Shown here: piece by piece, positions 1 through 44,026 of the stretch
Position numbering within the stretch: position 1 is the stretch's first letter
How the letters are laid out: the number at the start of each line of letters is the position of its first letter
Assembly (NCBI RefSeq): GCF_036971445.1
Contig: NC_091482.1
Span: 60,388,001-60,452,000 of the forward strand
From: Narcine bancroftii
Lineage: Eukaryota
Reading direction: 5' to 3'
Length of the DNA: 64,000 bases
Made by a program: the position numbers and the translations under genes
Notes under the pieces: model-generated
The model's database searches: none
What the model saw: the letters and a program-made list of their open reading frames with translations, nothing else
Told to the model about the DNA's origin: nothing

Positions 1-411
1 CCAGACTGAGTCGAAATCAGGGTTCTTTGTTCTTTATTACCGGATTGTAACACTTGCAACTAACAATGTTAGTCGGAGAATGCATTCTGCCGTTAACAGC
101 AAAATGATGATTTTTTATACCCTTGGATACGTGCTTAGAACATCATCATATCATTACTTGTCCAATGACTAAAACTGTTGCTATCCTTTCCCTGCTAGCT
201 TCCTGCCTCTCAATCCATCAATGTCTCTCTTATCTTGTAAGTACAAGGATGCATTCACATCTTGTTACAGCCCTGCACAGGGTAACTCCTTACACATTCC
301 CATCTCATGATGTTTTACCTAACAGGAGTACAAGGACACCTCCCCTTCTTGTTACAGCCCTGCACAGGGTAACTCCTTACACATTCCCATCTCATGATGT
401 TTTACCTTACA
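1..411 (-). mobile_element. LTR (5' LTR or solo LTR, truncated by window edge) in HACD3 intron 3
   Basis: Minus strand begins TGTAAG at 411; about 87-bp tandem duplication in U3 (approx 238-324 / 325-411); TATAAAAA (119-112) in a GGTATAAAAA(A)TCA context like the provirus LTR; AATAAA at 38-33; no polypurine tract upstream. Confidence 0.6.
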
Positions 412-429
412 ATTGGAATAAGAGTTGAG

Positions 430-900
430 GCAGAGGAGGAAACAAGGACAACCCTATCAAGGAACATCAGAAAGTGACAGGTAAAGGCAGGCTTTTTTCT
501 TTCTATTTTATAGAAGGTGGGAATGGCAACCAGGGAAGGAGCATGCTCCTCTTGCAGAATGTAGATTGTCAAGGAGGCTAACAGTATCCCTAACAACTCC
601 ATCTGTGAGAAGTGCATTCAGCTGCAGCTCCTTACAGTGTTAGGGAATTGGATGAACTCCGATCATTCAATGGCTGAGGGGCTAACAGACGAAAGGTACA
701 GGAATGCAATCATATCTTGGATGTTGTATATTTGGACAAGGTGCCTCATGTGAGGCTGCTTAACAGGTAAGAGCCCATGGAATCATAGGAAAGATATTAG
801 CATGGGTAGAGCTTTGGTTCTTCGGGAAGAAATAGAGTGGGAATAAAGGGATCCTATTCTGGTTGGCTACCAGTTACCACTAGTGTTCCACAGGGTTCTC
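430..900 (+). mobile_element. Degraded CR1-type LINE fragments
   Basis: ORF1-like (CEKCIQLQLL) and RT-like (DKVPH..LL...AHGIIG; VTTSVPQG) remnants with stops and indels. Confidence 0.55.
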
Positions 901-1699
901 ATTTCTTTGCTCCTCCTTGTGAGCTTATCACCATCATCCAAGTTCCATCCTGTTCCACGTACATTTCAATTCTATAAACATACACATCACCACTACCAAT
1001 TTCCACCCTATTCACCTCCCTGCAAACTTTATCTTGGTGAGATTTTTAAATAATTCTCATGCATTAAATAACTCGATAACCTCACCCCTTCCTAGCTTTG
1101 TAACTCATTCAGCCCTCCACCCCTCCAAGATGTTTGCATTCTACAATTAGGCTTTTTGCACATCCATGACCTTCTTCTCTAGGCTACTAGTCATTTTGTT
1201 TCATCCGTTTGGGCGATGAGCTGTAGCATTCCCTTCCTTAACTTCATGGCCTCTTTTTTTACAAGGCCTCTTTTTTTACAATGCCTTTTTAACCAGCTCA
1301 ATTGCTCAGTGATATTTTGATTGGTAAAACTACAGGACAAGCTTTGGCATTATTTTTACATGAAAGTTCTATGAAAATAGAGCCTAGCCTTTCTCCAGAT
1401 TCCAAAAAGCTGAAATCTTCTAAAATCAGCACTTTTTTTTGGTATATGACATTTGCTCATCAAAGATGGAGTTTGGCACTAAACATGACCCAACGCGACC
1501 CTCGCTTAACTCCTGTGTATCCTGTCAAGTTCTGTATCACTAATTAGTGATATCATTACTTTATAAGTACCCTACCCGTCATTCTGCTACTTTAGAAGTG
1601 CCCCTGAATTGCCATATACTGATGCCCATCCTGCGTCATGGCACTTTCAGTCGGCCCAGCAGTAGCTGAATGCAGGATCAATGGCTGACAGCAGCAAGA

Positions 1700-2090
1700 C
1701 TCGGGCAGGCTGGGGGGGGAAGAGAGACAGCAGCATGATTCAGGCGAGGGTTGGGGAGAGATGGCAGCGCGACGCGGGCGGGGGAGATGGCAGCGCGACG
1801 CGGGCAGGCGAGGTGGGGGGAGACGGCAGCGTGACGTGGGCGGGCGAGGTGGGGGGAGACGGCAGCGCAACGCGGGCGGGCGAGGTGGGGGAGATGGCAG
1901 CGCCATGTGGGCGGGCAAGAGGGAGAGACAACAGTGCAATGTAGGCAGGCAAGGAGGAGAGATGGTAGCGCAACACGGGCAGGGGAGAGAAAAAGACGTC
2001 AGCGCTACTCAGGCGAGGAGGGGGAAAGATGGCATTGCGACACGGGCGGGCAAGGGGGTGGGGGAAGAGAGGCGGCAGCACAACGCGGGT
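1700..2090. repeat. Degenerate GC-rich tandem repeat, about 36-bp unit
   Basis: Recurring ggcagcgcgacgcgggcgggcgaggtgggggaga units; explains overlapping low-complexity ORFs. Confidence 0.75.
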
Positions 2091-3141
2091 GGACTAAAAA
2101 TGATTCCAAAATCCAGAAGATTCCAAAAAACAGCAGGTATCCCGTCCTGACAAAAGGTTAGGCACCTGTGCAAGTTTTACAAGCAAATTTTAAACCCAAG
2201 TCACTACGACATATTTCCATTTCTATTTTACAGGAATGATGTAGTTGCACTGGAGTAGGAGAGATTGACAAAGATATTGCCAGTATTGGAAAATTATAGC
2301 TATGGAAAAAGATACGATAAGCTTAGGGGAAAAAATATTTGCTGGAAGAATTCAACATGTCAAATCTGAGTTGGGAGAATGGGGGAAAGGAGTTGTCTAT
2401 GTTTATGGTTGAAACTGTTCAAGACTGATCAAGGAAATAATTCTTTCCCCCCCCCCCCCTATAATGCTCTTTGACCCATTAAGTTCCTCAGCAGGTTTGT
2501 TTTACTCTCTATTTCCTCATCTGCACTCTTGTGCGTTCTAGATAAGTTAGGATTGCCTCCTTTAGAATGGAGAGAGTGAGGGGAGGCCTGACACCATATA
2601 AAATTTCAATCTTTGATCATGTAAATAGGCAGGATGTATTTCCCTGAACAGAGGGGACAGCAACTAAAGAGAATTGTGGGTGGCACAGATAGCATAGTGC
2701 AATACTTACAGTGTGGGTTTTCCCTGGGGGCTTCTACCATTCAAAATGTACTGGGGGCTGTGGGTCAATTGGGTGTAATTAGATGGCACAGGCTTGTGGG
2801 CCGAAAGGACCTGTTACCATGCTGTATGTCTAAATTTTAAATATTTAAATGTATGCTAGAAATCAGCCATTGTGAATAAGATTATGGTATTGTCTAGCCA
2901 TTACAAATCCATTACATATGCCCATCCTGTTCAGGTGCCACCTTGGAAATTAGCAGCAGATCAACATTTTCAGTAAAGTGCACAGAAATGTTTTAGCCTA
3001 CAAATTCGAGGACAAAATAATTTTCACAGAAATCCTGAAAATATCCCTGAAAAATTGTACAAGCCATTAAAAAAGTTAACTTTCATTAGGTCTGTGGCTG
3101 AATTGTAATCACCATCAAAGGTTAAACTGTCAGTGACATAC

Positions 3142-3215
3142 CTCAGAAGTCACAGCTTCCAGGAATGGCAGGCGGAATTCATAGACATTGTCTCCTTTTG
3201 CTCCATGGCCGTGTG
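3142..3215 (-). CDS. HACD3: HACD3 coding exon 3 (74 nt)
   Basis: ccttcag|CA CAC GGC CAT GGA GCA AAA GGA GAC AAT GTC TAT GAA TTC...TCT GAG|gtatgt gives (A)HGHGAKGDNVYEFRLPFLEAVTSE, matching the HACD3 CS/p23 domain (human AQGHGAKGDNVYEFHLEFL); phase consistent with exon 2. Confidence 0.93.
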
Positions 3216-4603
3216 CTGAAGGTACACAAGAAAAATGACATGATGAAACACAAGACTAGATTCAAACTCTTCTCAGGAGTGATCATAGGAGTACAAGAAA
3301 TTAGGACCATGCCATCATCCCCTTCACACCTGCTCTTCTATTCTGCCTGCTGGCCTCAATTCTCCATCCCTCCTATTCCTTGATGATTGATCTATTAAAT
3401 ATTTATCCACTTCCACTTTATTTCTAATGTTCCAGTTTTCATGGTCCAGAGATTCACCATTAAACATTTCTATGTAACCAGAGTTTTAAATGACTAGCCC
3501 TGCATCTTGTAGCTATAAACCTTGTTTGAGGCTTTCCCATCAGTGAAACTATCCCAACATCTACCCTGTCATACTCCCTTAAGATTTTATACAGGTGTAA
3601 TAGGTCACCTTTCACACTTTCACAAGGAATAAAGGCCCAAACTATTTAGTCTTTCTTGGGAGGACAACCCTCTCAGTCCAGGAATTAGTATGATGAACAT
3701 AGAACTGCTGGAGGAACTCAGCAGATCAAGACCTTAATAAAGAGTCACAACCCAAAACATCGACTGACAACCTCTACCCAGTGATATGGCCTGACTTGCC
3801 TAGTTACTCGAGCAATTTCTTTTGCTCAAAATTCCAGTATCTGCAACCTTTGATTCTCTTTTAACCTGGTGAATCTGCTTTGGACTGCCTCCAATGTTAC
3901 TGTATCATTCATGGGAAAGGAGTTTACCTCCCCAATACTTGTCAGACCTCTCTGCTATAATTTTTTCATGCTCAAGATCACCTAGGTCTCTCTAAATTTC
4001 ACTCACATTGTCTCTTCCCATTTAAATAATCTGCTTTTTGATTTCATTCACCGAAATACATGACATCACAAGCTCCACATAAAACTCCATTTGCCAATCT
4101 TTTACTCAAACGATCCCTACTCGAGAATCACAGCTTCCTTATCATATGCCCTGCCATGTATCACATCACTGGCAAATTTGGAAACTTTACACAAATGTTC
4201 CTTCCTCCAATCATTAATGTAAACACTGGACGACTACGAATCAAGTACACTGCAAAAGTATTCCACAAATTACTTCTTGCCAAGCAAAAAGGAGCAAATT
4301 TTCCAACTCTGGTTTCACTGAAACAGTTTTCAATCCACTCTCAAACAATTCCTCCTAAATTATGGCTTTCAATTTATGTGTGAGGAGTTGCAATGCAACA
4401 GGGACACAAGTCAAAAGTAACAAAAAAAAGGGCTAAAGGCTTTGTATTTAAATGCACACAACACAGGAAATAAAGTGGACGACCAGCTACACATTGGCAG
4501 GTATAATGTCATAGCCATCTTGGAGTCATGGCTAAAGGATGGATGTCATTGGGAGCTTAACATCCAATTTAATCGAAAAGAATAGGCAGGTAAGGAGAGC
4601 AAT

Positions 4604-6311
4604 GCTCCCCGGGCCACCGCTCCCCGGGCCACCGCTCCCCGGGCCACCGCTCCCCGGGCCACCGCTCCCCGGGCCACCGCTCCCCGGGCCACCGCTCCCC
4701 GGGCCACCGCTCCCCGGGCCACCGCTCCCCGGGCCACCGCTCCCCGGGCCACCGCTCCCCGGGCCACCGCTCCCCGGGCCACCGCTCCCCGGGCCACCGC
4801 TCCCCGGGCCACCGCTCCCCGGGCCACCGCTCCCCGGGCCACCGCTCCCCGGGCCACCGCTCCCCGGGCCACCGCTCCCCGGGCCACCGCTCCCCGGGCC
4901 ACCGCTCCCCGGGCCACCGCTCCCCGGGCCACCGCTCCCCGGGCCACCGCTCCCCGGGCCACCGCTCCCCGGGCCACCGCTCCCCGGGCCACCGCTCCCC
5001 GGGCCACCGCTCCCCGGGCCACCGCTCCCCGGGCCACCGCTCCCCGGGCCACCGCTCCCCGGGCCACCGCTCCCCGGGCCACCGCTCCCCGGGCCACCGC
5101 TCCCCGGGCCACCGCTCCCCGGGCCACCGCTCCCCGGGCCACCGCTCCCCGGGCCACCGCTCCCCGGGCCACCGCTCCCCGGGCCACCGCTCCCCGGGCC
5201 ACCGCTCCCCGGGCCACCGCTCCCCGGGCCACCGCTCCCCGGGCCACCGCTCCCCGGGCCACCGCTCCCCGGGCCACCGCTCCCCGGGCCACCGCTCCCC
5301 GGGCCACCGCTCCCCGGGCCACCGCTCCCCGGGCCACCGCTCCCCGGGCCACCGCTCCCCGGGCCACCGCTCCCCGGGCCACCGCTCCCCGGGCCACCGC
5401 TCCCCGGGCCACCGCTCCCCGGGCCACCGCTCCCCGGGCCACCGCTCCCCGGGCCACCGCTCCCCGGGCCACCGCTCCCCGGGCCACCGCTCCCCGGGCC
5501 ACCGCTCCCCGGGCCACCGCTCCCCGGGCCACCGCTCCCCGGGCCACCGCTCCCCGGGCCACCGCTCCCCGGGCCACCGCTCCCCGGGCCACCGCTCCCC
5601 GGGCCACCGCTCCCCGGGCCACCGCTCCCCGGGCCACCGCTCCCCGGGCCACCGCTCCCCGGGCCACCGCTCCCCGGGCCACCGCTCCCCGGGCCACCGC
5701 TCCCCGGGCCACCGCTCCCCGGGCCACCGCTCCCCGGGCCACCGCTCCCCGGGCCACCGCTCCCCGGGCCACCGCTCCCCGGGCCACCGCTCCCCGGGCC
5801 ACCGCTCCCCGGGCCACCGCTCCCCGGGCCACCGCTCCCCGGGCCACCGCTCCCCGGGCCACCGCTCCCCGGGCCACCGCTCCCCGGGCCACCGCTCCCC
5901 GGGCCACCGCTCCCCGGGCCACCGCTCCCCGGGCCACCGCTCCCCGGGCCACCGCTCCCCGGGCCACCGCTCCCCGGGCCACCGCTCCCCGGGCCACCGC
6001 TCCCCGGGCCACCGCTCCCCGGGCCACCGCTCCCCGGGCCACCGCTCCCCGGGCCACCGCTCCCCGGGCCACCGCTCCCCGGGCCACCGCTCCCCGGGCC
6101 ACCGCTCCCCGGGCCACCGCTCCCCGGGCCACCGCTCCCCGGGCCACCGCTCCCCGGGCCACCGCTCCCCGGGCCACCGCTCCCCGGGCCACCGCTCCCC
6201 GGGCCACCGCTCCCCGGGCCACCGCTCCCCGGGCCACCGCTCCCCGGGCCACCGCTCCCCGGGCCACCGCTCCCCGGGCCACCGCTCCCCGGGCCACCGC
6301 TCCCTGGGCCA
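4604..6311. repeat. Perfect 15-bp minisatellite (GCTCCCCGGGCCACC)n, about 114 copies
   Basis: Directly visible; only the last unit varies; lies in HACD3 intron 2. Confidence 0.98.
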
Positions 6312-6771
6312 GCCGTGTGTTTTTACTATTGTAATATTGCCCCTTTTGCTTGCCTTCTCTATCTCCCTCTGTAGTTTGCACACCACATTCTGGCTGCAAC
6401 ACCCATCAGGGTTTTTTTTTAAACCCTTAGTTTCTTAACTCTACACATAAGGATTCTACATCTTCTGATCCAATGTCTCCTCTTTCCAAAGATTTAATTT
6501 CATTTTTAACCAACAGAACCACACCACCCCTTCTGCCTACTTTCCTGTCCTTCTTACATAATGTGTATCCACAGATATTTAGTTTCTAGCTGTGGTAATC
6601 TTTCAGCCAAGACGAAGTGATGACCACAATGTCTTACCTGCCAACTTCCAGCTGTGCTACTCGACCATCTGCACTGTATTCATCACCCATTTAAATTTGT
6701 TTTCAAAATGCCACAAGTTAAATCCTTAATCTTACACATTCATTTTTGCCTTATTGACTGACAGTCCTCCC

Positions 6772-6905
6772 NNNNNNNNNNNNNNNNNNNNNNNNNNNNN
6801 NNNNNNNNNNNNNNNNNNNNNNNNNNNNNNNNNNNNNNNNNNNNNNNNNNNNNNNNNNNNNNNNNNNNNNNNNNNNNNNNNNNNNNNNNNNNNNNNNNNN
6901 NNNNN
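6772..6905. other. Assembly gap (134 N)
   Basis: Run of N. Confidence 1.
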
Positions 6906-7121
6906 TCCCATGCCTTTTTCTGAATCTATTTTTTTCCCTCTTGAAAGTATTTCAATTAACTTATGCAGATTTAATCAATTTGTTCTTTTTATCAAAAAAG
7001 TGCCCTCAGCAAGCTCGAGCTCAGATTATACACTACACACCAAACAGTGAAGAGTTATTTTTATACCACTGGGAGAGTCAATTACAAGTCAAAACTTCTT
7101 CATACTGCTCCCGGGGCAGTA

Positions 7122-7149
7122 TGTACCTTCAGCACACGGCCATGGAGCA
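7122..7149. repeat. 28-bp perfect inverted copy of 3199-3226 (HACD3 exon-3 acceptor plus first 17 exon nt)
   Basis: 7122-7149 TGTACCTTCAGCACACGGCCATGGAGCA is the exact reverse complement of 3199-3226 TGCTCCATGGCCGTGTGCTGAAGGTACA. Confidence 0.95.
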
Positions 7150-7209
7150 GAGGCATCATCATGGAATTGTTGCAGTACAGATTGAGGCCATTCAACATTA
7201 AAATCTTAC

Positions 7210-7252
7210 CTCTGAAGAAAAGGACATTTTCAGTGATTTTAACATCAGGTTT
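7210..7252 (-). CDS. HACD3: HACD3 coding exon 2 (43 nt)
   Basis: caacag|AAA CCT GAT GTT AAA ATC ACT GAA AAT GTC CTT TTC TTC AGA G|gtaaga gives KPDVKITENVLFFR (human NPAISITENVLHFK). Confidence 0.92.
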
Positions 7253-7829
7253 CTGTTGAGAGAGAAAAATGTTAAATAGATTAATGGAATTTTACAAAAA
7301 AGAGCAGACGCATTCACAAATGCTATAAATTATGGAAGGAATGTTGAAAATGACTACATAATTCTCTGAAGCAATTACTTACGACATAAGAGCAGAAATA
7401 GGATATTCAGCCCATCAAGTCTGCCCTGTCTTTTAATCATGAGCTGATCCATTTTGCCAATAAGCCCCACTGCCTGGCCTTCTCCCCATGACCATTGATG
7501 CCCTGGCTAATCAAGAACCTATCAATCTCTGCCTTAAATATACCCAATGACTTACCCTCCACAACGGCCTGTGGCGACAAATGATGAGAATTAACTAATG
7601 CTCCAATGATTTAGAATAAATTCAACAATCTCATTTCAAGGTGCCTGCATTCACTATATTCATCTCTTAAGGAAGCAGGAGAATGAGAATCAGGTGTGGA
7701 TGATGCTCAGAGGAAATGGAGTTGGTAAAGATGGGGAAATTGTTTAACTGGGAAGGTCAAGTTATGATATAAGGCATGAACTAGGGAGTGTAAATTTGAA
7801 ACAGAGGGTTTTTAAAAAATTTTTAGAGG

Positions 7830-8060
7830 CCCAGGACAGTACAGGCTCTTTTAGCCCACAAGCCCACGGTGGCCATATACAGTGCATCAATTAACCAACA
7901 AACCCTCTACATTTTTGGAGGGTGGGAGGACACTGGAGCACCTGGAGGAAACCCAAATGGTTATGGAAGATGGTATAAACTCCTTACAGACAGCACCAGA
8001 TTTGAACCAGGGTCGCAGATACAGTAACAGCATTGCACTAACTGCCATGCTAACCAAGCC
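7830..8060 (-). mobile_element. tRNA-derived V-type SINE
   Basis: Reverse complement of the SINE core (gcgctgtctgtaaggagtttgta...gggtttcctcc.ggtgctcc) seen at several other sites in the window. Confidence 0.65.
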
Positions 8061-9259
8061 GTCTGGGAAAGTTCTCAGGGAAATGCACACCAGAAAAATG
8101 GAGGATGTTAGGGACCACTTGTACTGGCTTCTAGATAGGGCGCAAATTCAATATCATTAACAACTCTCGCACATGCGTCAACTGAACTCCTATACGCAAA
8201 CCCATCGTGCGTACACCCACTGAAGACTCGTGCATGTGCACAAGAATCAAGATGGCTGCACCCAGCATACGGACCCTGGGACCCCGACAAACAATGCAAG
8301 TTTAGACCAGAATGTGGAAAGGTTCGCCAAGGTTGATCGAAATATTCAGGAAGATTTAAGTTGTTATCGTCAAATCTATGACGAAAAAAAGATTTGATTA
8401 AAATGTTTGCTTTAAGACTTTGGTACTCCACGTGCACAGGCAAAATTATGTCCAGTTTGGGATACGACCGATCCTTTGGTCCCAATTACAGTCATAAATT
8501 GGGGAGTACCCGTATATAACCTTAGGAAAACCCTAAGGTGTCTACACCTACATGAAGAACAGAAAGATAACCAATTAGGAATAAAGGGAGGAACATGTGC
8601 CTGGTGGTCAGGGTGTTTCTAAATGAATACTGCTTCAGTGTTTACTAGAGAGCAGGACCTTGCTGAATGTGAGGTCAGTGTAGTATAGGTTAATGTGCTA
8701 GACCATGTCAAAGTTAAGAAAGTGCAAAATTATTCAGAATCAAAAGTTGTCATGAACATGTCATGAAATTTGTCCTTTTGTGGCAGGATTACAGTCCCAA
8801 TATTGCTATAAATTACATTTCAAAATAATTAGTGCAAGAAAATAGGAGAAAGTGAGGTAGTACTGATTAATTGTCCATTCAGAAATCTAATGGCAGAGGG
8901 GAAGAAGCTGTGCTAGGTGCTCATCTTCAGGCTCCTGTACAGCAGTGTGAAGAGGGCATGGCTTGGGTGGTGAGGGCATGGCTTGGGTGGTGGGAGTCCT
9001 TGAGGATAGAGGTTCCTCTCTTAAGACACCACCTCTTGTAGATGCTTTCGACTGGTGCCCGTCATGTTGCAGGCGAAGTTAACCTTCTGGAATTTTATCT
9101 TGTCCTGAGCGTTGGCGCTTCAATACCAGACAATGATGCAACCATCCAGAATGCTCTTCACAGTATACCTGTAGAAGTTTCTGAGAGTCTTCAGTGACAT
9201 ACCGAATCTCCTCCAACTCCTTACAAAGTATAGCCGTTGGCAAGCCTTCTTCCAACAAA

Positions 9260-10295
9260 GCAAGGTTGACAGAGCTAGGGCTTTTCTCTTGGGAGCAACA
9301 ATGGATGAGAGTTGACTTAATTAAGGATTCTACGATTATGAGGAGCATAGATAGGGTAAACACGGGTGAAGTGCTGGAGGATTGGAAGGTAGCTCATGCT
9401 GTTCCATTGTTTAAAAAAGGCTCTAAAATTAATCTTGGATTTAGTAGGCCAGTGAGACTGACATCAATAATAGGTAAGTTAATGGAAGGTGCTCTAAGAG
9501 ATCGAATGTACAATAATTGGGTTAGTCAGGGGAAGATTACGGATAATCAACATGGGTTGTGCATGGTAGGTCATGTTTAACCAATCTTATAGTTTTCTGA
9601 GAAGATTATCAGAAAAGCTGATGAAGAAGATGCCATGGATTTCCTGAAAGTGCCATCACAGGTAATAGGATTGTAAAGAGAGCTTTTGGCATATTGGCAA
9701 AGTATTGAGCATAGGAATTGGGATGTTATGGAGAAGTTGTACTAGTCATTGGTGAGGCGAAATTTGGAGTATCATGTGCAGTTTTGGTCACCTAACGACA
9801 GGAAGAATATCAATAAGATTGAATGAGTGCAGAGGAGATTTAAAAGGATATTGCCAGAACTTGAAGAACTTAGTTACAGAAAAAGGTTAAACTGGTTAGG
9901 GCTTTATTTGCTGAAATGTAGACAATGAGGGGATATTTGATAGAGGTATACAAAATTATGAGGGGTGTAGATAGAGTAAATGCAAGTAGGCTTTTTCCAT
10001 TGAGGATAGGTGACATAAAAACTAATGGTTATGGGTTAAGGGTGAAAAGGAAAAAGTTTAAAGGGAACTTTAGAGGAAACTTCTTCACACCAAGTGGGTT
10101 AGGAACATGGAACAAGCTGCCAGCTGAACTGGTGAATGCATACTCAATTCTGACATTTAAGAAAATATTGGACAGCTACATGGATGTGAGGGGTATGGAG
10201 GTATATCGTCTGGTGCAGGTCAATGGGACTGGACAGAATAGTTTGGCAAAACTAGAAGGGCTTGTTTCTGTGCTGGAGTGTTCTATGGTTCTACC
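9260..10295 (+). mobile_element. CR1-type LINE ORF2 fragments
   Basis: EDWKVAHAVPLFKKG...RPVRLTS and MRGYLIEVYKIMRGVDRVN...FF..WNKLP motifs of CR1 RT and C-terminus. Confidence 0.85.
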
Positions 10296-10305
10296 TTTTA
10301 CCTGG

Positions 10306-11025
10306 TGTAATGGAAGATTCTAACCTGTTTTTTTAAACTTGCAGCTCTGGGTTAGACAAGGCTGAGAACCTGCTTGTGTTTTAGAATTAGCAGACATAAG
10401 CAAAATTCCACTGAGGGGCCAGAGATGGTGTTATCTGAAGAAAGGACATCTGTGTACCAAGAACATTTAATCTTCCTCCTTGTTTTGGTCACAGACTGTC
10501 AGCGGCCTAGCCTTGATGCAAAATAAACCATTGTATTCAAAGTGATAAGCTGAAAATTGTGTTATTCGTTAGAAGCCTAACATGCTAGCTTGCTTGCTTA
10601 TCTTTCTTGCTGTGCTGGGAATAGGTGCTTGGGTAAGCAGTTTTTGGGTAATACAAGTCATGGTCCCGCTGCTGAAGTTTGAGACTCTCCGAGAGGTGGC
10701 AACATCTCTCAGCAAGAAGAAGAACTTCTGGAATCCAGCCAACATCCCGGTCAGGGGAGGTGGAGAAGCTGCTACCGGCACCCTGACAACCGACTACAAG
10801 TGTGCAGTCGTTGCCTCGCTTTGGCAGTTGGGACCAGTCCAAGCGTTGATAAGTATAGTTGGGAAGGGCTTGCATATTGTAGTGTGAAATCAGCTTTTGA
10901 ATTTGTAATAAACATTTGTATAAACTGAACTGCTCTCGGTGTGTGTGTCTATTTTATTTCGGTAGCTCAAACGCTGTGACCAATCTAAAACAAACAAAAT
11001 GAGAGGTATAAATTTACCCAAGACA
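10306..11025 (+). mobile_element. Probable solo LTR (about 720 bp) in HACD3 intron 1
   Basis: TG...CA termini flanked by near-identical 5-mers CCTGG / TCTGG; AATAAA near 10907 followed by GT-rich tract. Confidence 0.55.
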
Positions 11026-12539
11026 TCTGGTTTATATTCAAATTTCCTGGTGTTTTGCTTTTGCTCTCCAGCTTATGCTGATCATATACTAATTGCACTT
11101 GTTTGTAATCCTTCATTCAAATCGTGTTTTTTTTCCCCCTTAAGAGGCAAGAACACTAATGAGCACATTGACATTTCTGTCAATTTCCTTTTAAATCTCC
11201 TCTATATTCGTTCAATTAGCAAGTCCACATGTCAATCTGGAAACTGTGTTTATTGTTATCAAGACCTTGATAAGATCACGCTTGAGAGATTTGGTCCGGG
11301 GAAAAAAAACCCCAGGACACATTGGATCAGATGCTGATGGTCATTATGCAAAAGTTGAGTTTTTTTTCTTCACAGTGACCAGTTGTACTGTAGTTATTGG
11401 TACTGGGACCCTTGCTGTTCTTTTGAAAAACCATCTACAATCTGGATGTCAATGCAGGAGGTGAGATTAGGTTTGCAGATGAATTGGAGATTGAGACGGT
11501 TGTTAATGATGAAAAGTTAGTAAAAGAGCAGAAAAATGGTGGATAGAATTTAATCCTGAAAAATGTGAGGTGTTACATTCTGGGAGGATTATTACAACTA
11601 GAATATGCATGTGGGGCCCAAGAAGGTCATAAGGAAGAGAGGGAAATTGGTGTTCACATTCAATGGTTCCCAAAGGCAGCAGCAGAGGGTGAAGAAGCTG
11701 ATTAAGAAGATATACAGAACACTTGCCATTAATGTGCTATGGAATTTAAATGGAGGTTATGGTGCAATTAAATTGATATTAATTAGGCCACAGATGGATG
11801 ACTGTGTAACATTCTGATGATCCCCTTACAGGAAGGATAAGAAGAGATGTCACCGAGCAAAAAATGTTTCACTCATGAAGAGGCTTCAGAGGCTATGCTT
11901 TTTGGAGACTCTTCGAAGATTGAGTATAATGGTTTCCACAGTAACTAGACACTCGCAACAACCTTTAAATATCATTTCTTTTCTCACACACTGCCTTGTG
12001 CCATTCCTTACCAATTAATTCACCGTTATTCTCTTGAATACCACACACAACCTTTATCTGCAAATGGCTCAGTACGATAGTAAAAAATCTACTTGACAAA
12101 TACAACCAACTCCAAATTACAAATTGTTCATATTGGAATTTTCAGAGCAACTCGAAACATCACCACAAACTATTATTTAAGAGATCAATATCCAGCTCGT
12201 ATTAACTCACACACTGACAGCTCCTCTTACATCCTCTCCCCAAATCCCCGATCCATTGTGCCAGCTGGGGATCATGACACCCCAACGACCTGTGCCAGTC
12301 ATTTCCAACCTGATCACTCCTCTTCAAACCAAACGTACACGTGGCCTCTTTCTCCAACCTTCTCCTTCAATCCCACCCAAAGGTTGGGCTGCATTTCCCA
12401 CCCACGGTAAGGCCACAAATAACCAAATTTATTTTCTTCTGATCCAGTTGCTGTGTGACAACCTTCCATGCTCCCACCTGAAAACATCCCTTCCTCACAC
12501 TCCAGCATATGAACTGTCTTCCACACCTCCTTTCTCACT

Positions 12540-13225
12540 CCGCCCCCCTACCCCCTCCCCCCACTCCCCCCTCCAACCCCCCTCCACCCTCCCCCTAACC
12601 CTCCTCCAACCCCCTCCCCTAACCACCCCTCCCCCTACACCTCTCTCCCCCTCCCCCTAACCCCCCTCCCTAACCCCCTAACCCCCCCTCCCCCTAACCC
12701 CCCTCCCTAACCCCCCTCCCTAACCCCCTAACCCCCCCTCCCCAACCCCCTAACCCCCTAACCCCCCCTCCCCCTAACCCCCCTCCCTAACCCCCCTCCC
12801 CTAACCCCCTAACCCCCCCTCCCCAACCCCCTAACCCCCAACCCCCTAACCCCCCTCCCTAACCCCCCAACCCCCCCTCCCCAACCCCCTAACCCCCCAA
12901 CCCCCCCTCCCCAACCCCCTAACCCCCAACCCCCTAACCCCCCCTCCCCCTAACCCCCCTCCCTAACCCCCCTCCCTAACCCCCCTCCCCCTAACCCCCC
13001 TCCCTAACCCCCTAACCCCCCCTCCCCAACCCCCTAACCCCCAACCCCCCTCCCTAACCCCCCAACCCCCCCTCCCCAACCCCCTAACCCCCAACCCCCT
13101 AACCCCCAACCCCCTAACCCCCAACCCCCTAACCCCCAACCCCCTAACCCCCCCTCCCCCTAACCCCCCCTCCCCCTAACCCCCCTCCCCCTAATCCCCC
13201 CTCCCCCTCCCCCTCCCCCTCCCCC
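12540..13225. repeat. C-rich degenerate repeat with many CCCTAA (telomere-like) units, HACD3 intron 1
   Basis: Mixed CCCCTAA / CCCCAA / CCCTCCC units; the G-rich strand is the HACD3 sense strand. Confidence 0.9.
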
Positions 13226-13262
13226 ATCTCCCACGAAACTCGCGCGGGACGGGGCCCTTCAC

Positions 13263-13349
13263 CTGAACGTCGCTCAGATCCACCCTCAGGTACAGCTCGT
13301 CGTGCCTCTGGGCCCAGTAAACGTGCGGTGTCAGGCTCAGTCCCTGCAT
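13263..13349 (-). CDS. HACD3: HACD3 coding exon 1 (87 nt), very-long-chain 3-hydroxyacyl-CoA dehydratase 3
   Basis: ATG at 13349; MQGLSLTPHVYWAQRHDELYLRVDLSDVQ|gtgaag closely matches human MENQVLTPHVYWAQRHRELYLRVELSDVQ; within a CpG island. Confidence 0.95.
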
Positions 13350-13500
13350 CTCGGCGGGCGGCCTCAACCTCTTCACTGCTCCAACGACCGGCACGGCCGA
13401 CGCGCGCGTCACCGCAACGACCGGCACGGCCGACGCGCGCGTCACCGCGTCCGGATCAGACCGCCAGAGAGGCGGGCACGAGCGTGGCTGGGGCTCCCTT
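13350..13500 (-). promoter_or_regulatory. HACD3: HACD3 CpG-island promoter / 5' UTR with a 33-bp tandem duplication
   Basis: High CpG density; cgaccggcacggccgacgcgcgcgtcaccgc occurs twice (approx 13386-13448). Confidence 0.65.
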
Positions 13501-13711
13501 CACACAGTGATACAGAAGGTGGGAAGGAGCTGGGTTGTGTGGAAAGGTGAGTGAATAAAAATTACCTGGGATCTTCCCTCCACTCACCTTAAACCCATGT
13601 CCTCTGGTACTTGCTATTATCTCCCGAGGAAAGGGGGTTGCCCACCCTGACAAAGCTCCTCATCATGTCGGAACTCGCCTCTCACCTTTCGTTGTTCCAA
13701 AAGAGAAAAGT

Positions 13712-14180
13712 CTGTTCTCCATCAATCCAGGGATCAGGTAAACCTCTGCCCCCCCTCCTCTCCTCCTCCAATGCATCTATATCCTTCCTGTAAGGTGAAC
13801 ATGTTCTCCAATCCAGGGATCAGGTAAACCTCTGCCCCCCCTCCTCTCCTCCTCCAATGCATCTATATCCTTCCTGTAAGGTGAACATGTTCTCCAACCC
13901 AGGGATCTGGTAAACCTCTGCAACCCCACCCCCACCTCCTCCTCCAATGCATCTATATCCTTCCTGTAAGTAGGTGAACATGTTCTCCAACCCAGGGATC
14001 TGGTAAACCTCTGCCCCCCCCCCCCTCCTCCTCCAATGCATCTATATCCTTCCTGTATGGTGAACATGTTCTCCAATCCAGGGTTCTGGTCAACCTCTGC
14101 CCCTCTCTAATGCATCTACATCCTTCCTGTAAGGAGGTGCCCAGAACTGAATGCAATACTCCACAAGTGTGGTCGAACCC
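13712..14180 (-). repeat. About 75-bp tandem array (5-6 units) derived from a CR1 ORF2 segment
   Basis: Minus-strand units translate as YRKDIDALEE...QRFTR, the CR1 C-terminal motif; variable poly-C within units. Confidence 0.8.
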
Positions 14181-21669: not shown

Positions 21670-22100
21670 CCCCGCCGGCCCCTCCCTCCCTCCCTCCCTA
21701 CCCCTCCCCGCCGGCCCCTCCCTACCCCTCCCCGCCGGCCCCTCCCTACCCCTCCCCGCCGGCCCCTCCCTACCCCTCCCCGCCGGCCCCTCCCTACCCC
21801 TCCCCGCCGGCCCCTCCCTACCCCTCCCCGCCGGCCCCTCCCTACCCCTCCCCGCCGGCCCCTCCCTACCCCTCCCCGCCGGCCCCTCCCTACCCCTCCC
21901 CGCCGGCCCCTCCCTACCCCTCCCCGCCGGCCCCTCCCTACCCCTCCCCGCCGGCCCCTCCCTACCCCTCCCCGCCGGCCCCTCCCTACCCCTCCCCGCC
22001 GGCCCCTCCCTACCCCTCCCCGCCGGCCCCTCCCTACCCCTCCCCGCCGGCCCCTCCCTACCCCTCCCCGCCGGCCCCTCCCTACCCCTCCCCGCCGCCC
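21670..22100. repeat. 24-bp minisatellite (CCTACCCCTCCCCGCCGGCCCCTC)n, about 17 copies, RAMAC intron 1
   Basis: Directly visible; G-rich on the RAMAC sense strand; followed by degenerate ccggagaccagacc repeats to about 22335. Confidence 0.95.
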
Positions 22101-23617: not shown

Positions 23618-23953
23618 GACGACTTACGATTGTGGTGTGGGGATTGGGTAACAGGTGTAACGGGATACACCTGTTTGGATAAAAACCTAACGAAATAGAT
23701 TAAGTATAGATCTTTTGTCGTGGTGTGAGGACCCTGTCGCGGGACTCTAGGATAGACCCCAGGGAAACCTCGGCGGTAACCGAAGGAGGGACAGCACCTC
23801 CGACGAAGTGCCGAGAAGAGAGGGGTCAACCCCAGGAAAACCTCAGCGGTAACCGAAGGAGGGACAGCACCTCCGACGAGGCGTCTGAGAAGAAGGGAGT
23901 AGGGTCCAGAACGAGAGGGTCCTCAGCAACGATAAACAGATCTAGGTGGGAAA

Positions 23954-25444
23954 ATGGGAGGATCAAAATCTAAGGGCTCGTCTGAAAATTTAGGACAATT
24001 CCTGGGAGTATCCCTTGACAGCCCTTTGGGGAGAATGTTTGAAAATTGGGATAGTAAAAGATATCGGGACAAAAACAAGAAAAAGATGGTCCAATATTGT
24101 CTCCTTTGGTCAAAACAACCTATTAAAGGTTCCTCGGTCTGGTGGCCGAAATTTGGATCTGATGAGGATTGGGTTAGACAAGCATTAAACATATATGTAA
24201 ATTCGAGACCAAAGGTGAATCAAGAAGAGTCAGCATATGCATTTTGTTGGGTTCCCTGGCCAGGATCCTTAACAGAATGTTTTAAATTGAGAGTGGCAGG
24301 AGAAAAGAAATGGGAACCTCTGGACAACCTTCCCCCTCCTTATATTCCCCCGGTGCCTACTGCGCCCGAGGAAAGCTTATTACCGGAGGGGAAAGGTGAT
24401 GAATCTGATTGCCCCGAAGGGGGCCGGGATAAAAAGGATGAATTAAGGGAGTCGGACCCTAAACTTCCACCGGTAAACCGACCCTGGACAAGATCCCAGA
24501 CTGGTCCAGGACCATCAAAGTTTTCAATAAACCTAAATCCCCTGAGAGAAGTTCCTATGGGAGGACCGGGAGGGGGAACGGGATATGTGAATGTTCCCCT
24601 AACTAGTACAGAGGTGCGGGGATTTAAGAAAGAAATGAAAAAGTTATTGGAAGATCCTATAGGACTGGCTGAACAGCTTGACCAATTCTTGGGACCAAAC
24701 ACATATACGTGGGAAGAGATGCAGGCAATAATGGGAACATTATTTTCACCCCAGGAGAGGCAGATGATTCGACGGGCTGCCCTCCTCATGTGGGAATATG
24801 AACAACCTGGGGACCCTAGACCCCATGAACAAAAATATCCCTTAAATGAACCCAGGTGGGACAAACGAACACCCGAGGGATTGGCAAGTATGAGACAATA
24901 TAGAGAGTGGACAATTAAAGGGATACGGGAGGCTGTGCCAAAGGGTCACAATTTTACCAAGGCATTTGGGAACCACCAGGGGAAAGACGAGTCCCCTACT
25001 TATTTTTTGGAGAGGGTGAGAAAGAATGTCCAACAGTATGCTGGTGTGGACCCTAGTACACCAATGGGTGAACAGCTTATTCGAATTGAATTTGTTTCCA
25101 AATCATGGCAAGACATTAGAAAGAAACTAGAAAAGGAGGAGGACTGGAGTGAAAAACCCCTAAGTGAACTGTTAAAAAAGGCACAAAAAGTATATGTGCA
25201 GAGAGAAGAAGAAGATCAAAAGAGGGCGACAAAGGTTATGGTACAGACTATCCGACAGATGAATGCTGAATCCAGAGGGGAAAGAAAACAAAACCTTCCT
25301 CTAAACAATCCAAGATATCCAAGAGAGGGAAGACCCCGGAGGTTCGTTAAGTGCTATTACTGCAATGAGGAAGGACACTTTAAGAGGGAATGCCCCCGAT
25401 ACAAGAGGGAATTGCGTGCCCTCGAACTTATGGAAGAAGATTAG
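23954..25444 (+). CDS. gag: Retroviral Gag (496 aa, intact)
   Basis: MGGSKS myristoylation signal; adjacent PPPY and PTAP late domains; MHR-like QGKDESPTYFLERV; single CCHC knuckle CYYCNEEGHFKREC; ends in TAG-G. Confidence 0.95.
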   Translation: MGGSKSKGSSENLGQFLGVSLDSPLGRMFENWDSKRYRDKNKKKMVQYCLLWSKQPIKGSSVWWPKFGSDEDWVRQALNIYVNSRPKVNQEESAYAFCWVPWPGSLTECFKLRVAGEKKWEPLDNLPPPYIPPVPTAPEESLLPEGKGDESDCPEGGRDKKDELRESDPKLPPVNRPWTRSQTGPGPSKFSINLNPLREVPMGGPGGGTGYVNVPLTSTEVRGFKKEMKKLLEDPIGLAEQLDQFLGPNTYTWEEMQAIMGTLFSPQERQMIRRAALLMWEYEQPGDPRPHEQKYPLNEPRWDKRTPEGLASMRQYREWTIKGIREAVPKGHNFTKAFGNHQGKDESPTYFLERVRKNVQQYAGVDPSTPMGEQLIRIEFVSKSWQDIRKKLEKEEDWSEKPLSELLKKAQKVYVQREEEDQKRATKVMVQTIRQMNAESRGERKQNLPLNNPRYPREGRPRRFVKCYYCNEEGHFKRECPRYKRELRALELMEED

Positions 25445-25516
25445 GGGTGTCAGGGGTTCCAAATGTTAGGGACCAAATATAAGAGGGAACCCCTGGTAAA
25501 ACTAAAAATTGGTCCC
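25442..25516 (+). promoter_or_regulatory. Gag stop-codon readthrough signal with H-type pseudoknot
   Basis: UAG, then stem 1 CAGGGGTTCC (25451-25460) / GGAACCCCTG (25486-25495) and stem 2 GGGACCAA (25469-25476) / TTGGTCCC (25509-25516). Confidence 0.8.
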
Positions 25517-27342
25517 AAGGGAGAAGAGGTGGTGTTGGTGCAACCAAGCTGAGCTGCAACCCAGCTCAGTTTTTATACGGCAGTGAAACAGAGACAGAGG
25601 TGGAGCATGACTGTGTCGAGTTGACAGATCTTCAGACCAAGACCCGAGAAGACCTTTGCGATACTCCGCTGGGAGAAGGATATGAATTCTACATTGACGG
25701 CTCCGCCAGATGTGTTGACGGAATGAGAAGAAATGGGTATGCTATAATAGGAGGAAATACTTGGAAAGTAGTAGAATCCACGAGACTACCCGGAAGCTGG
25801 TCAGCACAATCCTGTGACCTATATGCCTTGCAGAGAGCCCTCAGAATACTGGCAAATAAAATTGGAACGATTTACACAGATTCCAAATACGCATACGGGG
25901 TAGTGCATACCTTTGGTAAGATCTGGAAGGAGCGTGGTCTAATTACATCAAGAGGAAAGGAATTGGCACACGAACAGATGATTACTCTGACTTTAGAAGC
26001 CTTAACATTACCCCAAGAAATAGCAGTGGTCTACATACCAAGCCATCAAAGGGGAGATAACCCGACAGCAATTGGAAACAGACTGGCTGATGAAGAAGCC
26101 AAAAGAGCAGCCATGCAACAAGAAGTCCGTTTGCTGACTTTAATCCCAATAAGGCAAGGCATAAAGACAGCTCCCATTTTCACTGCTAAGGAAGAAAAGA
26201 ACATGGATCAGCTGGGCGCAAGCCAATTACCTGATGGAACATGGAAAACACCAGATGGAAGAACTGTTCTAAATAAAGAAATAACTCGCAACATTTTAAA
26301 ACACCTGCATCAACAGAGCCACTGGGGCACTCAAGCCTTATGTGACACAGTGCTTCGAGAATATGTGTGTAAGGGAATCTACACCTTGGCCCAACAAGAG
26401 GTGCAAAATTGTTACCTATGCACAAAAATTAATAAGAAGATAATGAGGACAGGGACCATGGGAGGTCAACCATTAGCCATACGCCCTTTTCAACGTATCC
26501 AGATCGACTTCACAGAGTTACCTCAAGTTCAAAGATGGAAATATCTGTTGGTGATAATAGATCACTTTACCCGATGGGTAGAAGCCTTCCCAACAATAAA
26601 TACTACAGCCTCTACAGTAGCTCGCCTCCTCCTAGAGCAGATAATCCCCAGATATGGTATAATGGATTCTATAGACTCAGACAGGGGTCCGCATTTTTCT
26701 TCAAAAATCCAGCAATTGATTTGTAATGCATTACAGGTCTCTTGGAAATTACATACCCCTTGGCATCCACAAAGCTCAGGGAAGGTCGAACGTATGAATG
26801 GAACACTAAAAATCCAATTGACAAAGTTAATGGTGGAAACTAAAATGCCTTGGATAAAGTGTCTGCCCCTAGCCTTATTGAGAATTCGTACTGCCCCACG
26901 AAAAGATGTAGGGCTGTCCCCTTATGAAATGATGTTTGGGCTTCCCTTCTGGAGTACAGTTGAGGGGTGTCCCACCTTGGGGGAAGGGGATATATTTGTT
27001 AGGAACTATTTACAGGCACTGTCACGCTCTCTTACAGATTTACGAAAGAGAGGACTATTGGCACAAACACCGCCTCTAGACTTTTCTTTACACAAAGTGG
27101 AACCAGGAGACTGGATTCTTATCAAGACCTGGAAGACTGAAAAACTCCAGCCCCAGTGGGAAGGTCCATACCAAGTTCTCTTAACTACAGAAGCTGCAGC
27201 ACGAACAAGAGAGAAGGGGTGGACACACGCATCCAGATTTAAGGGACCTGTAGAGGCGCCACAGGACCCTGATACAAACTCAGATTGGACTTGTATTCCT
27301 GGAGAAAAACCTCTTACCTTACGATTTCGCAAAAAGACTTAA
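25445..27342 (+). pseudogene. pol: pol with protease core and entire RT deleted; RNase H and integrase frame open
   Basis: Protease start EPLVKLKIGPKGEEVV without DTG; jumps out of frame to tether end (CNPAQFL..HDC); RNase H (IDGS, YTDSKY, GNRLAD); IN HHCC, DFT / DSDRG / VERMN catalytic triad and GPY motif; no YxDD present. Confidence 0.92.
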
Positions 27343-27348
27343 TTCACA

Positions 27349-29374
27349 ATGTTATTGTTATGTTCTTTGATTTTTCTTAGTTTGCCTATGTCTTTATCAG
27401 GTGTGAAATGTAAGAAATGCAGAGATACAGTGGTCCTGTTTCAGGACCACATTTGGGGAAGAGGGGAAGGTAATTTCATTTCCCATACCTCAGTTCCTGA
27501 GAAATGTTGGGCAGAAAATACCACCCAACATCCATATACCCCTTGTGTGGAAAAAGAAGGAAATAATATGGGTCATTATATACAGATTCCTAATACGCAT
27601 ACGGGGTAGTGCATACCTTTGGTAAGATCTGGAAGGAGCGTGGTCTAATTACATCAAGAGGAAAGGAATTGGCACACGAACAGATGATTACTCTGACTTT
27701 AGAAGCCTTAACATTACCCCAAGAAATAGCAGTGGTCTACATACCAAGCCATCAAAGGGGAGATAACCCGACAGCAATTGGAAACAGACTGGCTGATGAA
27801 GAAGCCAAAAGAGCAGCCATGCAACAAGAAGTCCGTTTGCTGACTTTAATCCCAATAAGGCAAGGCATAAAGACAGCTCCCATTTTCACTGCTAAGGAAG
27901 AAAAGAACATGGATCAGCAATTGGATTTCCCTCTTAACAGTTGGAAAGGTGACTCAAGCCCACCATGCCCTGATGGACTCTGGTTTTGCATACACCAACG
28001 TACTGTTCCAATGAAAAGTTACACTCCACACTTGAAATTGCCTGTCCCTTTAAGACAGCCGGACTTAGTTCGAGTCCATCCAAATAACCATGTAAGTTTC
28101 GGTAATGCAATTGGGGAGATAACCTTTTTGTAGATCTGGCAACTAAAATTGCAGGAACTTTTAATGTAACCAATTGTTGGGTCTGCGGGGGTCCACGGAT
28201 GTCAGAACAATGGCCTTGGTGGGGGGAGCCCCTCAATTCATTGACCATGATTTCCCGGATTTAGACAACTAACCGAACGAGATCAAGAGAAACCTCGTCT
28301 CTCTCTAACTTCCCCTCTGGTTTTTATTGTCTCTCACGAGCCGGCAAATACCCAGTAGGAGAAAGTCCCTGCAAGGCTGTATGGATTCGCATTTCACCTG
28401 GTGTTTTCACTTGGTTTCCTAAACCTCAGACTTGGTTCTTATCCACTGTTTTTAAAACTAATTGCCTACCCCTGTCTAATAGCAGTATTCAGTTTTGGAA
28501 TTGTACCACTTCCACCATCACAGGACCATACCAATCAAATCCTGTTCTTAAAAGAGTTTGGGAAAGGGGGTATAGAGTATCCCCAAATGGATTATTCTGG
28601 GTATGTGGTAATAAAGCTTATACTCGTCTTCCCTCACAGTGGAGTGGAACTTGTTTCCTAGGAATAATCCGCCCAGAATTTTTCCTTCTACCCCACGATC
28701 ACGGTCATAAATTAGGCGTGAAGGTCTTTGATACATTACATCGTGAACCCCGCTCTACCACGGTACATTCGGGAGAATGGAGAGATGATTGGCCTCCAGA
28801 GCGCATAATTCAATATTATGGTCCCGCTACATGGGCTCAAGATGGATCTTGGGGTTATCGTACTCCTATATATATGTTAAATCGCATAATTCGCTTACAA
28901 GCAGTGCTTGAAATTGTTACAAATCAAACAGCTATAGCCCTGCAATTACTTGCATCCCAGCAAGGTCAAATGCGCTCTGCTATATATCAGAACCGTCTAG
29001 CCCTAGACTATCTCCTAGCCACGGAAGGAGGTGTATGTGGCAAACTTAATTTGACTAACTGCTGCTTACAGATTGATGATAATGGAAAAGCCATTCGTAA
29101 AATCGCTGATAATATTCGTACATTGTCCCATGTACCGGTTCAAACCTGGCATCCTTTCCCACAATTTAATTGGATGGACAAATGGTTTGGAGGAACCTGG
29201 TGGCGTACCTTCTTGTGGGTCATCGGAGGTATTTTATTCCTCCTACTTATTTTGCCCTGTATTATTCCCTGTCTACGCAGCCTGGTGATTTCCATGGTCG
29301 AACAAGCTATGCAACCAGGGGGGATGGGAGACCCTGTAAGACTTTTATTTCAGCGTGAGATTAATGTATCATAA
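27349..29374 (+). pseudogene. env: env, HERV-I/ERV3-type, disrupted; TM frame open
   Basis: Signal peptide; NLFVDLATKIAGTFNVTNCWVCGG; REPR cleavage-like site; WPPERIIQYYGPATWAQDGSWGYRTPIYMLNRIIRLQA; ISD YQNRLALDYLLA; CX7CC; TM helix. Lesions: 327-bp pol insert, frameshift near 28113-28116, TAG at 28262-28264. Confidence 0.92.
27592..27918 (+). repeat. 327-bp direct copy of pol 25886-26212 inserted in env
   Basis: Identical sequence at constant offset 1706; same HTFGKIWKERGL...EKNMDQ peptide appears in both ORF translations. Confidence 0.97.
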
Positions 29375-41601: not shown

Positions 41602-42608
41602 CTAGAGTTACAAATAATAAAGCCCTCATTAGTTAATTAACAAAAAATAGAAAGGAGTATTCTAATCCAGGGCTTATTATATTTTTGGGACTAGCTATTC
41701 ATTTGTATTTCTCCTCCTTTGGGAGGTGACCATCTAGATCAGTTGGGAAGGTGGGCCAACTTTGATAAATGTGATGTGTTGCACTTTGGGAGGTCAAACA
41801 AGTGCAGGACTTGTACAGTAAATGGAATCCTCCAGACTTAACACTTGCCCTGAAATCTAAATGTTCGGTACCGTATTTGGATGACACCACCATCTATCTT
41901 TGGATTGTGTTAGATGTGGATTCTACCAGTTTTTCCTTGGCTTTAGAAAGTTGTGAATTGACAACAAAAGAAACCTCATGCAAAATGTTCTCCAACATCC
42001 TAGGCAATCTCATTGCAGTGGAAATTGCTCAAGGTACAGCAAGAACAAAACTGCTGTTTACCCAGCAATGATGCTGGCAACTAGCTTTTCATTCATTGTC
42101 AGACAGCCTGAATGCCAGCAGCAACAGGATGCAATGGTAGAGCAAACTTACTGGAGTAACGAGGGAACATCAATGAAATGATTTTCAGCAGTTATCAAAC
42201 TCACTCACCAGCCAATTCTTGTCATGATGCTGAAGATACTGAGGAGGAGTGAACAGATTGCATAATTTCTGTGACTGGAACTTTATCTTTAATAAGTTAA
42301 AAGAGTCACATACTGTACCTATGTAAATTGTAGCTAAGGTGCATCTGGTTCAGAGCCTGTATCTCAAATAAGTGCAGTAAAATCCTTAGTATCTGGCACC
42401 TACAGGGATTGGTAAATGCTGGATAAGCGAGTTTCTGCTTGTTTGAATCTGTGTGTCATGTGAATGGAGAACTAATGGGGAGGTATGCCAATTTTAAACT
42501 AGTTTTTACCCATTCATTTTCCATAACTTTTGGCCAGTCATTTGAGATTGCCACTTGAATTCCAGATAATAGAGATTTTACTACATCTTCTAAAATCAGA
42601 AATCAGTT

Positions 42609-43288
42609 CAGAATCCCGATTTATTGGTCTTGCCTGTCCAATCAGAATCCCGATTTATTGGTCTTGCCTGTCCAATCAGAATCCCGATTTATTGGTCTTG
42701 CCTGTCCAATCAGAATCCCGATTTATTGGTCTTGCCTGTCCAATCAGAATCCCGATTTATTGGTCTTGCCTGTCCAATCAGAATCCCGATTTATTGGTCT
42801 TGCCAGTCCAATCAGAATCCCGATTTATTGGTCTTGCCTGTCCAATCAGAATCCCGATTTATTGGTCTTGCCTGTCCAATCAGAATCCCGATTTATTGGT
42901 CTTGCCTGTCCAATCAGAATCCCGATTTATTGGTCTTGCCTGTCCAATCAGAATCCCGATTTATTGGTCTTGCCTGTCCAATCAGAATCCCGATTTATTG
43001 GTCTTGCCTGTCCAATCAGAATCCCGATTTATTGGTCTTGCCTGTCCAATCAGAATCCCGATTTATTGGTCTTGCCTGTCCAATCAGAATCCCGATTTAT
43101 TGGTCTTGCCTGTCCAATCAGAATCCCGATTTATTGGTCTTGCCTGTCCAATCAGAATCCCGATTTACTGGTCTTGCCTGTCCAATCAGAATCCCGATTT
43201 ACTGGTCTTGCCTGTCCAATCAGAATCCCGATTTACTGGTCTTGCCTGTCTAATCAGAATCCTGATTTATTGGTCTTGCCTGTCCAAT
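42609..43288. repeat. 34-bp minisatellite, 20 copies, WHAMM intron 5
   Basis: (CAGAATCCCGATTTATTGGTCTTGCCTGTCCAAT)20 with few substitutions. Confidence 0.97.
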
Positions 43289-44026
43289 CAGAATCAGCAG
43301 GATTTGAACGAAGCACCAAGCGCTGACTCATCCATTTCTGGAATTATAGAAACTGCATCATCAGTGACCCCTTGGGAGGAGGAAGAGGAGGGTGGGTCGA
43401 GGTGAATTTATAAAAGGATCAAAATCAAAAGAGTATTACAGCAAAAGGGGTTTAACCAGCGCTGGTCAGTGCCCCAGCATAACAAGCCTTGCCCTTCCTA
43501 TTGATGACCTGCCAATGAATCAGGTCATAGTTTGCCTTTGCCCCAGACCATCTCTCACAAGCCACCCTTCAGTAGATAATGAACAGAGGCCATGGAAATT
43601 ATGTAAATCCACTCCCACTCCTTCCCAGTGCCTTCAGCAATGTTCCCTAATCGCTCCAGGACGTCTGCTTGCTAACTTTAGATCCAGTCGTTGCTGTCTT
43701 TCTGGCCAACTGAGGAGCTAGTCATTTCGAGGCTGGGCAAAAAACAAATGCCAGGTTTCCAATTTGTATCTTAAACTTCAAGCCATTCAGTGTGCAAAGA
43801 GATCACGAAGGATGGTGCAAGCAGCTTTCTCAGGCAGATCCTCCTGACCTGCGCAACATATTCTTCACTGAACCAACCACTGATTCAGTAATTCACAATC
43901 TCACTATCAGTGGCATCCCATAGCTCAGGAATGAATATTTCTGAATTTCGATGGGGGAGTTGGGTGGCTGGAATAAACCAACCTTATCCAATGCGCTGTA
44001 GACAAGAACAAATAGCAGCTACTTAC

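Follow-up and report, generated by a model that had tools for sequence, protein, structure and literature searches.

The window analysed here is a 64-kb stretch of DNA that carries HACD3, a fat-elongation gene, on its minus strand. The exon-4 peptide matches proteins of that name, best in rays, and HACD3 proteins also align to exon 3; the exons with the Pfam domain PTPLA lie downstream. Exons 1 to 4 contain 87, 43, 74 and 165 coding nucleotides, respectively. The features of this part of the gene are as follows, with positions given in the window.

13263..13349, minus strand: HACD3 exon 1, coding part, 87 nt
7210..7252, minus strand: HACD3 exon 2, 43 nt
3216..7209, minus strand: HACD3 intron 2, 3994 nt, GT..AG
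3142..3215, minus strand: HACD3 exon 3, 74 nt, beginning HGHGAKGDNVYEF
3199..3226, minus strand: copy source, the last 11 nt of intron 2 including the AG and the first 17 nt of exon 3
7122..7149, minus strand: antisense arm, in which the intron-2/exon-3 junction recurs inverted and without a mismatch; pre-mRNA position, intron +61 to +88
7158..7196, unstranded: decayed fragment of a dispersed repeat, 82-86% identical to contigs of other loci
4604..6311, unstranded: GC minisatellite inside the intron-2 loop, 15-bp unit, 113.9 copies, sole locus in the genome

The reverse complement of 3199-3226 was identical to 7122-7149 at 28/28 nucleotides, the spacing between the two copies being 3,923 nt. 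An exact 28-nt antisense copy of the exon-3 acceptor, starting about 60 nt past the exon-2 donor, lengthened by G-U and then A-U pairs to about 30 bp and adjoined by a hairpin, had been proposed in an earlier sequence-only reading of this DNA. All of these points were reproduced: the copy takes in 11 intron and 17 exon nucleotides, the G-U and A-U pairs lengthen the 28-nt core to a predicted duplex of 30 bp and -61.0 kcal/mol whose arm occupies intron +61 to +90, and the hairpin at 7101-7123 is present as a single-copy element with an 8-bp stem. The pair is the longest exact inverted repeat of the 64-kb window (the runner-up is 22 nt), and about 3e-8 inverted matches of 28 nt are expected by chance. 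A pattern search of the 3.33-Gb genome with up to three mismatches allowed returned just these two sites for the 28-mer. The edges of the copy are sharp, with no decayed remnant of homology past the 28 nt, and the decayed repeat fragment at 7158-7196 begins 8 nt from it. Antisense matches longer than 10 nt were found at no other junction among the 11 tested, and Rfam families gave no match in window positions 1-14000. A decayed pairing longer than 30 bp was also considered and found to be unsupported, the short matches near the copy being at shuffle level.

The 1.7-kb GC minisatellite that had been noted in intron 2 was confirmed in size and place, with the 15-bp unit and the limits 4604-6311 as added detail. 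It has 99% matches and 87% GC, is G-rich on the mRNA strand and stop-free in all six frames, and is likely a recent expansion. Four further young minisatellites were seen in the window at 21692-22097, 42608-43295, 55650-56258 and 57327-58628 (units of 24, 34, 21 and 28 bp; 87-100% matches), together with a telomere-like G-rich tract (CCCCCTAA-type) at 12538-13225, at the start of HACD3 intron 1, and two overlapping perfect GC-rich palindromes of 14 and 22 nt at 48548-48574. Endogenous-retrovirus-like frames on the plus strand at 23936-29374 correspond to Gag p30 with a zinc knuckle, RNase H with integrase, a second RNase H piece and env (TLV_coat); no match to reverse transcriptase was found in the four retrovirus-like frames scanned there.

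Skipping of the 74-nt exon 3 had been predicted to cause a frameshift, and it does so, with a stop at codon 81 within exon 4. Whether exon 3 is skipped or intron 2 retained, translation stops at codon 80-81, well upstream of the later junctions. Exons 2 and 3 add up to 117 nt, and skipping both preserves the frame; a protein form without these two exons was found in none of the retrieved relatives. Neither a clean exon 2-4 nor a clean exon 1-4 form was present among the 155 relatives' proteins viewed, and the exon missing from a short Hemitrygon HACD3 form is a later one, not exon 3. HGHGAK stands at the site in every retrieved shark or ray protein that spans it, and in Callorhinchus the first His position is occupied by Arg. 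Scans of metagenome contigs with back-translated exon 3 gave no match, and the single run from another organism was without coverage over 6906-7361. No paper on an intron-2/exon-3 duplex was found in the literature under HACD3/PTPLAD1; the HACD3 splicing change reported in excerpts of PMC12287257 concerns exon 1, not exon 3.

Nine public runs contain part of the region, and five of them (RNA and DNA) were examined, including two RNA runs from one study; RNA runs X7 and X9 and DNA runs X3 and X4 were outside the examined set. Each of the two RNA runs yielded one contig through exon 2 (2120 and 3278 nt, at depths of 461 and 247). In both, exon 2 was joined to exon 1 on one side, and on the other it ran straight into the first base of exon 3. 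Exon 3 was visible solely as 30-nt loose ends, its opening 30 nt, and these were identical to the genome in both contigs. Exon 2 was joined to nothing besides exons 1 and 3 in the contigs of either run, from which minor forms drop out, and the opening 30 nt of exon 3 showed no A-to-G change in either majority sequence, in which minority editing is invisible. Because exon 2 continued into unedited exon 3 in both runs, neither masking nor editing is what happens to most transcripts there. The main HACD3 mRNA is spliced normally and unedited in these two RNA runs, whose contigs span the exons, not the arm. Transcripts with a premature stop far upstream of later junctions are degraded by nonsense-mediated decay (NMD), so that skipped or retained forms, with their stop at codon 80-81, would be hidden from the contigs.

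The letters at the edges of the copy were then parsed. On the plus strand they run in the order CATA, CTGC, a 7-nt loop, GCAG, TATG, the remaining copy and GCAG, and the following features were delimited.

7101..7123, plus strand: hairpin with an 8-bp stem (7101-7108/7116-7123) and a 7-nt loop, read as a putative snap-back product of the same repair event
7116..7119, plus strand: left GCAG of the direct repeat and, by prediction, the 3' end that folds back on 7105-7108
7120..7150, plus strand: putative insertion of 31 nt relative to a reconstructed empty site, a 4-nt snap-back patch and a 28-nt distant patch sharing TG, ending in the repeated GCAG
7147..7150, plus strand: right GCAG of the direct repeat, its GCA being the end of the copy

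The 31 nt at 7120-7150 are flanked on both sides by the GCAG direct repeat and contain no untemplated base. The CATA left of the stem, reverse-complemented, gives TATG, whose TG also opens the copy; at its far end the copy closes on the GCA with which the second GCAG begins, a 3-nt microhomology. Both templates are on the plus strand, left of the site. When the same 28-mer was placed at random 20,000 times, a stem of at least 8 bp arose in 0.5% of placements and a stem together with a 4-nt repeat in 4 cases, in a test that was framed after the pattern had been seen. A DNA tail ending at 7119 is predicted to fold back with -3.5 kcal/mol before extension. An origin of the hairpin as a transposon piece or a minisatellite seed was rejected, as it is single-copy with two mismatches allowed.

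We favour, with a probability of roughly 0.7, the reading that the 28-nt inverted copy was left as a near-neutral scar when a single DNA break was repaired, the broken strand copying two templates in turn, and that the main mRNA includes exon 3 unedited in both RNA runs. A templated repair insertion had been offered earlier as the neutral alternative; the evidence favours it, and it accounts for the hairpin too. The break would have left a plus-strand 3' tail with a GCAG end (7119), and this tail would have folded onto CTGC (7105-7108), where backwards copying of CATA would have added TATG and made the hairpin. The new end would then have used its TG to prime again 3.9 kb further left on the same strand and copied from 3226 to 3199 to give the inverted copy, whose GCA end would have annealed to the right-hand end before sealing. 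We infer this order of steps, and the empty site, from the arrangement of the letters. Both templates lie on one side and on one strand, which is what a single long resected tail would lead one to expect. The layout, so parsed, is that of snap-back, multi-round repair synthesis, and the use of a splice acceptor as template is put down to chance. A mirror parse from the right-hand end suits the same letters; both templates would then be in the mRNA sense, and a pre-mRNA template would be possible. The DNA-primed and the mirror parse are inseparable by sequence alone.

Repair-mediated duplication is already known as a class, of which the HACD3 copy would be a further case, its regulatory role being unproven. 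For such duplications in vertebrate genomes, excerpts of Pace et al. 2009 (PMC2671141) describe donors within 5 kb, with microhomology, filler and target duplication; partial exon/intron donors account for 4/824, and an ACSBG2 exon was reverse-copied into an intron of its own gene without sign of constraint. The HACD3 copy likewise has a same-chromosome donor less than 5 kb away (3,923 nt) that is part exon and part intron. On a parse made without an empty site to hand, it also has microhomologies (TG and GCA), filler, a 4-nt target duplication (GCAG) and no poly(A/T) tail. Unlike the duplications in those excerpts, the copy is 28 nt long, below their 50-bp detection cut-off, it lies outside any recognisable transposon, and its filler would itself be templated by snap-back.

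Snap-back and multi-round synthesis are described for SD-MMEJ repair in part of PMC2943611, Pol-theta tracts are given in part of PMC7165422 as local and rarely longer than 10 nt, and multi-template insertions occur as human germline variants (MMBIR; excerpts of PMC8421209). Like SD-MMEJ and Pol-theta insertions (PMC2943611 and PMC7165422, as excerpted), the HACD3 copy appears to combine a primer repeat on one side, an inverted hairpin-made patch, several rounds of synthesis and a final microhomology. In contrast to the SD-MMEJ, Pol-theta and MMBIR studies, in whose excerpts templates lie within about 100 bp and tracts are mostly shorter than 10-30 nt, its second template is 26 nt long and 3.9 kb off. 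The first patch is thus local and short, as in SD-MMEJ/TMEJ, and the second (26 nt, 3.9 kb) is not; the copy, as parsed, works like snap-back SD-MMEJ/TMEJ and is not classed under it. Since Pol-theta tracts are local and rarely exceed 10 nt, an SDSA/MMBIR-like capture would explain a 26-nt tract from 3.9 kb better than textbook TMEJ. To judge from its letters, the feature has the traits of repair-mediated duplications that could be examined and resembles a snap-back, multi-template insertion.

The background of such copies was sampled in five blocks of the same genome, 1.324 Mb altogether, as sharp-edged, locally unique copies of 20-40 nt no more than 30 kb apart. Filtering of 114 candidate pairs left seven sharp-edged copies, the focal one and six others; none of the six had an 8-bp stem beside it. 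Genome-wide checking of four of the six identified one as a dispersed repeat and three as two-copy pairs: 31 nt direct, 871 apart (C29:30079110 / 30079981), 28 nt direct, 784 apart (C1:200093371 / 200094155), and 21 nt inverted, 1123 apart (C29:60462772 / 60463895). These three pairs of 21-31 nt are probably the same kind of scar. A base rate built on these 3 events, 1 of them inverted and all at background sites without annotation, extrapolates to about 7,500 such copies per genome (95% range 1,600-22,000), about 2,500 of them inverted (64-14,000). At an assumed 150-200 thousand acceptors, about 3 copies (0.1-20) would cover an acceptor by chance, so that a few are to be expected per genome without further cause. 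Also seen was a segment of about 150 nt duplicated in inverted orientation at a distance of 1.4 kb (C29:60624361 / 60625752), with no further match in the 524 kb searched. At the mutation rate of 7e-10 per base per generation given for another species, the epaulette shark, in an excerpt of PMC10587355, the first mismatch between the two HACD3 copies would be expected only after 25-50 million generations, and their perfect identity therefore needs no selection.

A repair-born arm might also modulate splicing now. It would pair with the emerging acceptor, and a fraction of transcripts would skip exon 3, retain the intron or shift to the AG at +21/+24; skipping or retention would bring a stop near codon 80 and NMD, and the shift, which is in frame, would remove 7-8 residues of the HGHGAKG stretch. 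The predicted 30-bp, -61 kcal/mol duplex covers the AG, the in-frame AGs at exon +21/+24 lie just beyond it, and the premature stops on skipping or retention suit such a role. Opening of the local folds is predicted to cost 14.2 kcal/mol for the arm and 12.2 kcal/mol for the acceptor, which leaves about -35 kcal/mol, loop cost excluded. The upstream donor is attached to RNA polymerase II while the intron is being made, according to part of PMC8316553, so that the arm would be carried to the acceptor; paired regions obstruct splice sites, and in human genes active splice sites are poor in conserved pairings (excerpts of PMC8052449). With a duplex of about -35 kcal/mol over an active acceptor and conserved pairings avoiding active splice sites, strict neutrality is thus not obvious. 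However, the canonical junction was the sole form in the contigs of both RNA runs, the arm is predicted to be locked in its local structure, and the U-rich tract (-21 to -14) is predicted to lie mostly outside the duplex, unpaired. The splice-switching role proposed by the sequence-only reading is therefore borne out as far as the stability of the duplex in silico, but not in the majority junctions seen in the RNA contigs. The arm like the PCCRs of PMC8052449 (as excerpted) is intronic, lies near an intron end and is predicted, though only predicted, to pair over a splice site at kilobase range; unlike it, PCCRs are defined there by vertebrate conservation and depleted at active splice sites, whereas the HACD3 acceptor is active. 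HACD3/PTPLAD1 is absent from the five supplementary files of that paper that were searched, the full PCCR catalogue being a separate browser track outside the comparison. On the folding predictions, pairing between arm and acceptor may occur in some of the molecules and a partial effect on splicing is possible; splicing factors probably outcompete the arm in most molecules, and present-day modulation is considered unlikely.

The same duplex had been suggested as an editing-complementary sequence for ADAR, which would recode the His codons (CAC and CAU to Arg) or destroy the acceptor A. Intronic editing-complementary sequences of ADAR substrates, for example GluA2 Q/R, form an imperfect duplex around A-containing codons. 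The HACD3 arm resembles that of GluA2 Q/R in its predicted intron-exon duplex around codons with A, and differs from it in that the duplex is perfect, the arm is upstream and over the acceptor, and no editing was seen in the main transcript. The seven A in the acceptor arm of the exon-intron duplex and the Callorhinchus Arg at the first His position speak for editing. Against it, A-to-G changes were missing from the opening 30 nt of exon 3 in both RNA contigs, the retrieved shark and ray proteins over the site, from species that may or may not have the arm, all read HGHGAK, and selective editing depends on mismatches, which are missing from a perfect duplex. The suggestion has in-silico support from the predicted pairing, and an ADAR role is considered very unlikely. 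By the mirror parse, the scar could instead have been copied from nascent pre-mRNA, the right-hand strand being primed at exon +17 of the unspliced transcript and reverse-transcribed across an acceptor held near the exon-2 donor by the spliceosome. Both templates would be in the mRNA sense, the junction that was copied is an unspliced one, 61 nt separate the copy from the partner donor, and Pol-theta is said to reverse-transcribe RNA. The DNA parse, however, takes no extra step and has a hairpin primer at hand, such copying is common in the background (at sites that were not annotated), and copies touching exons are preferentially noticed; an RNA template is accordingly held to be improbable. 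A still broader, speculative and improbable proposal is that the repair of breaks just past splice donors takes as template the 3' splice site in the gene's own nascent, spliceosome-held transcript and thereby preferentially writes acceptor-masking antisense elements that remain without a mismatch over tens of millions of generations in the slowly mutating sharks and rays, this one tuning HACD3 through NMD-coupled skipping or the +21/+24 AG shift. An assembly artefact is scarcely credible: no contig of the five runs examined could be placed over 7101-7157 and a 134-N stretch lies 216 nt away, but the hole is unspecific (DNA runs X1 and X2 gave no contig from the locus over 6906-7350, exon 2 included), the assembly is chromosome-scale with 595 contigs, and there is no way for an assembler to produce an inverted copy of 28 nt together with a hairpin and a target repeat.

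Taken as the near-neutral scar that we prefer, the HACD3 copy would be a tidy, fully parsed two-step templated repair in a cartilaginous fish. It also cautions against taking a perfect intron-exon duplex in slowly mutating genomes of this kind as evidence of selection, and it offers a natural test of the duplex strength at 4-kb range that an active acceptor tolerates. If such copies were enriched at splice junctions, or altered exon use, they would provide a direct path from repair to new RNA-structure switches.
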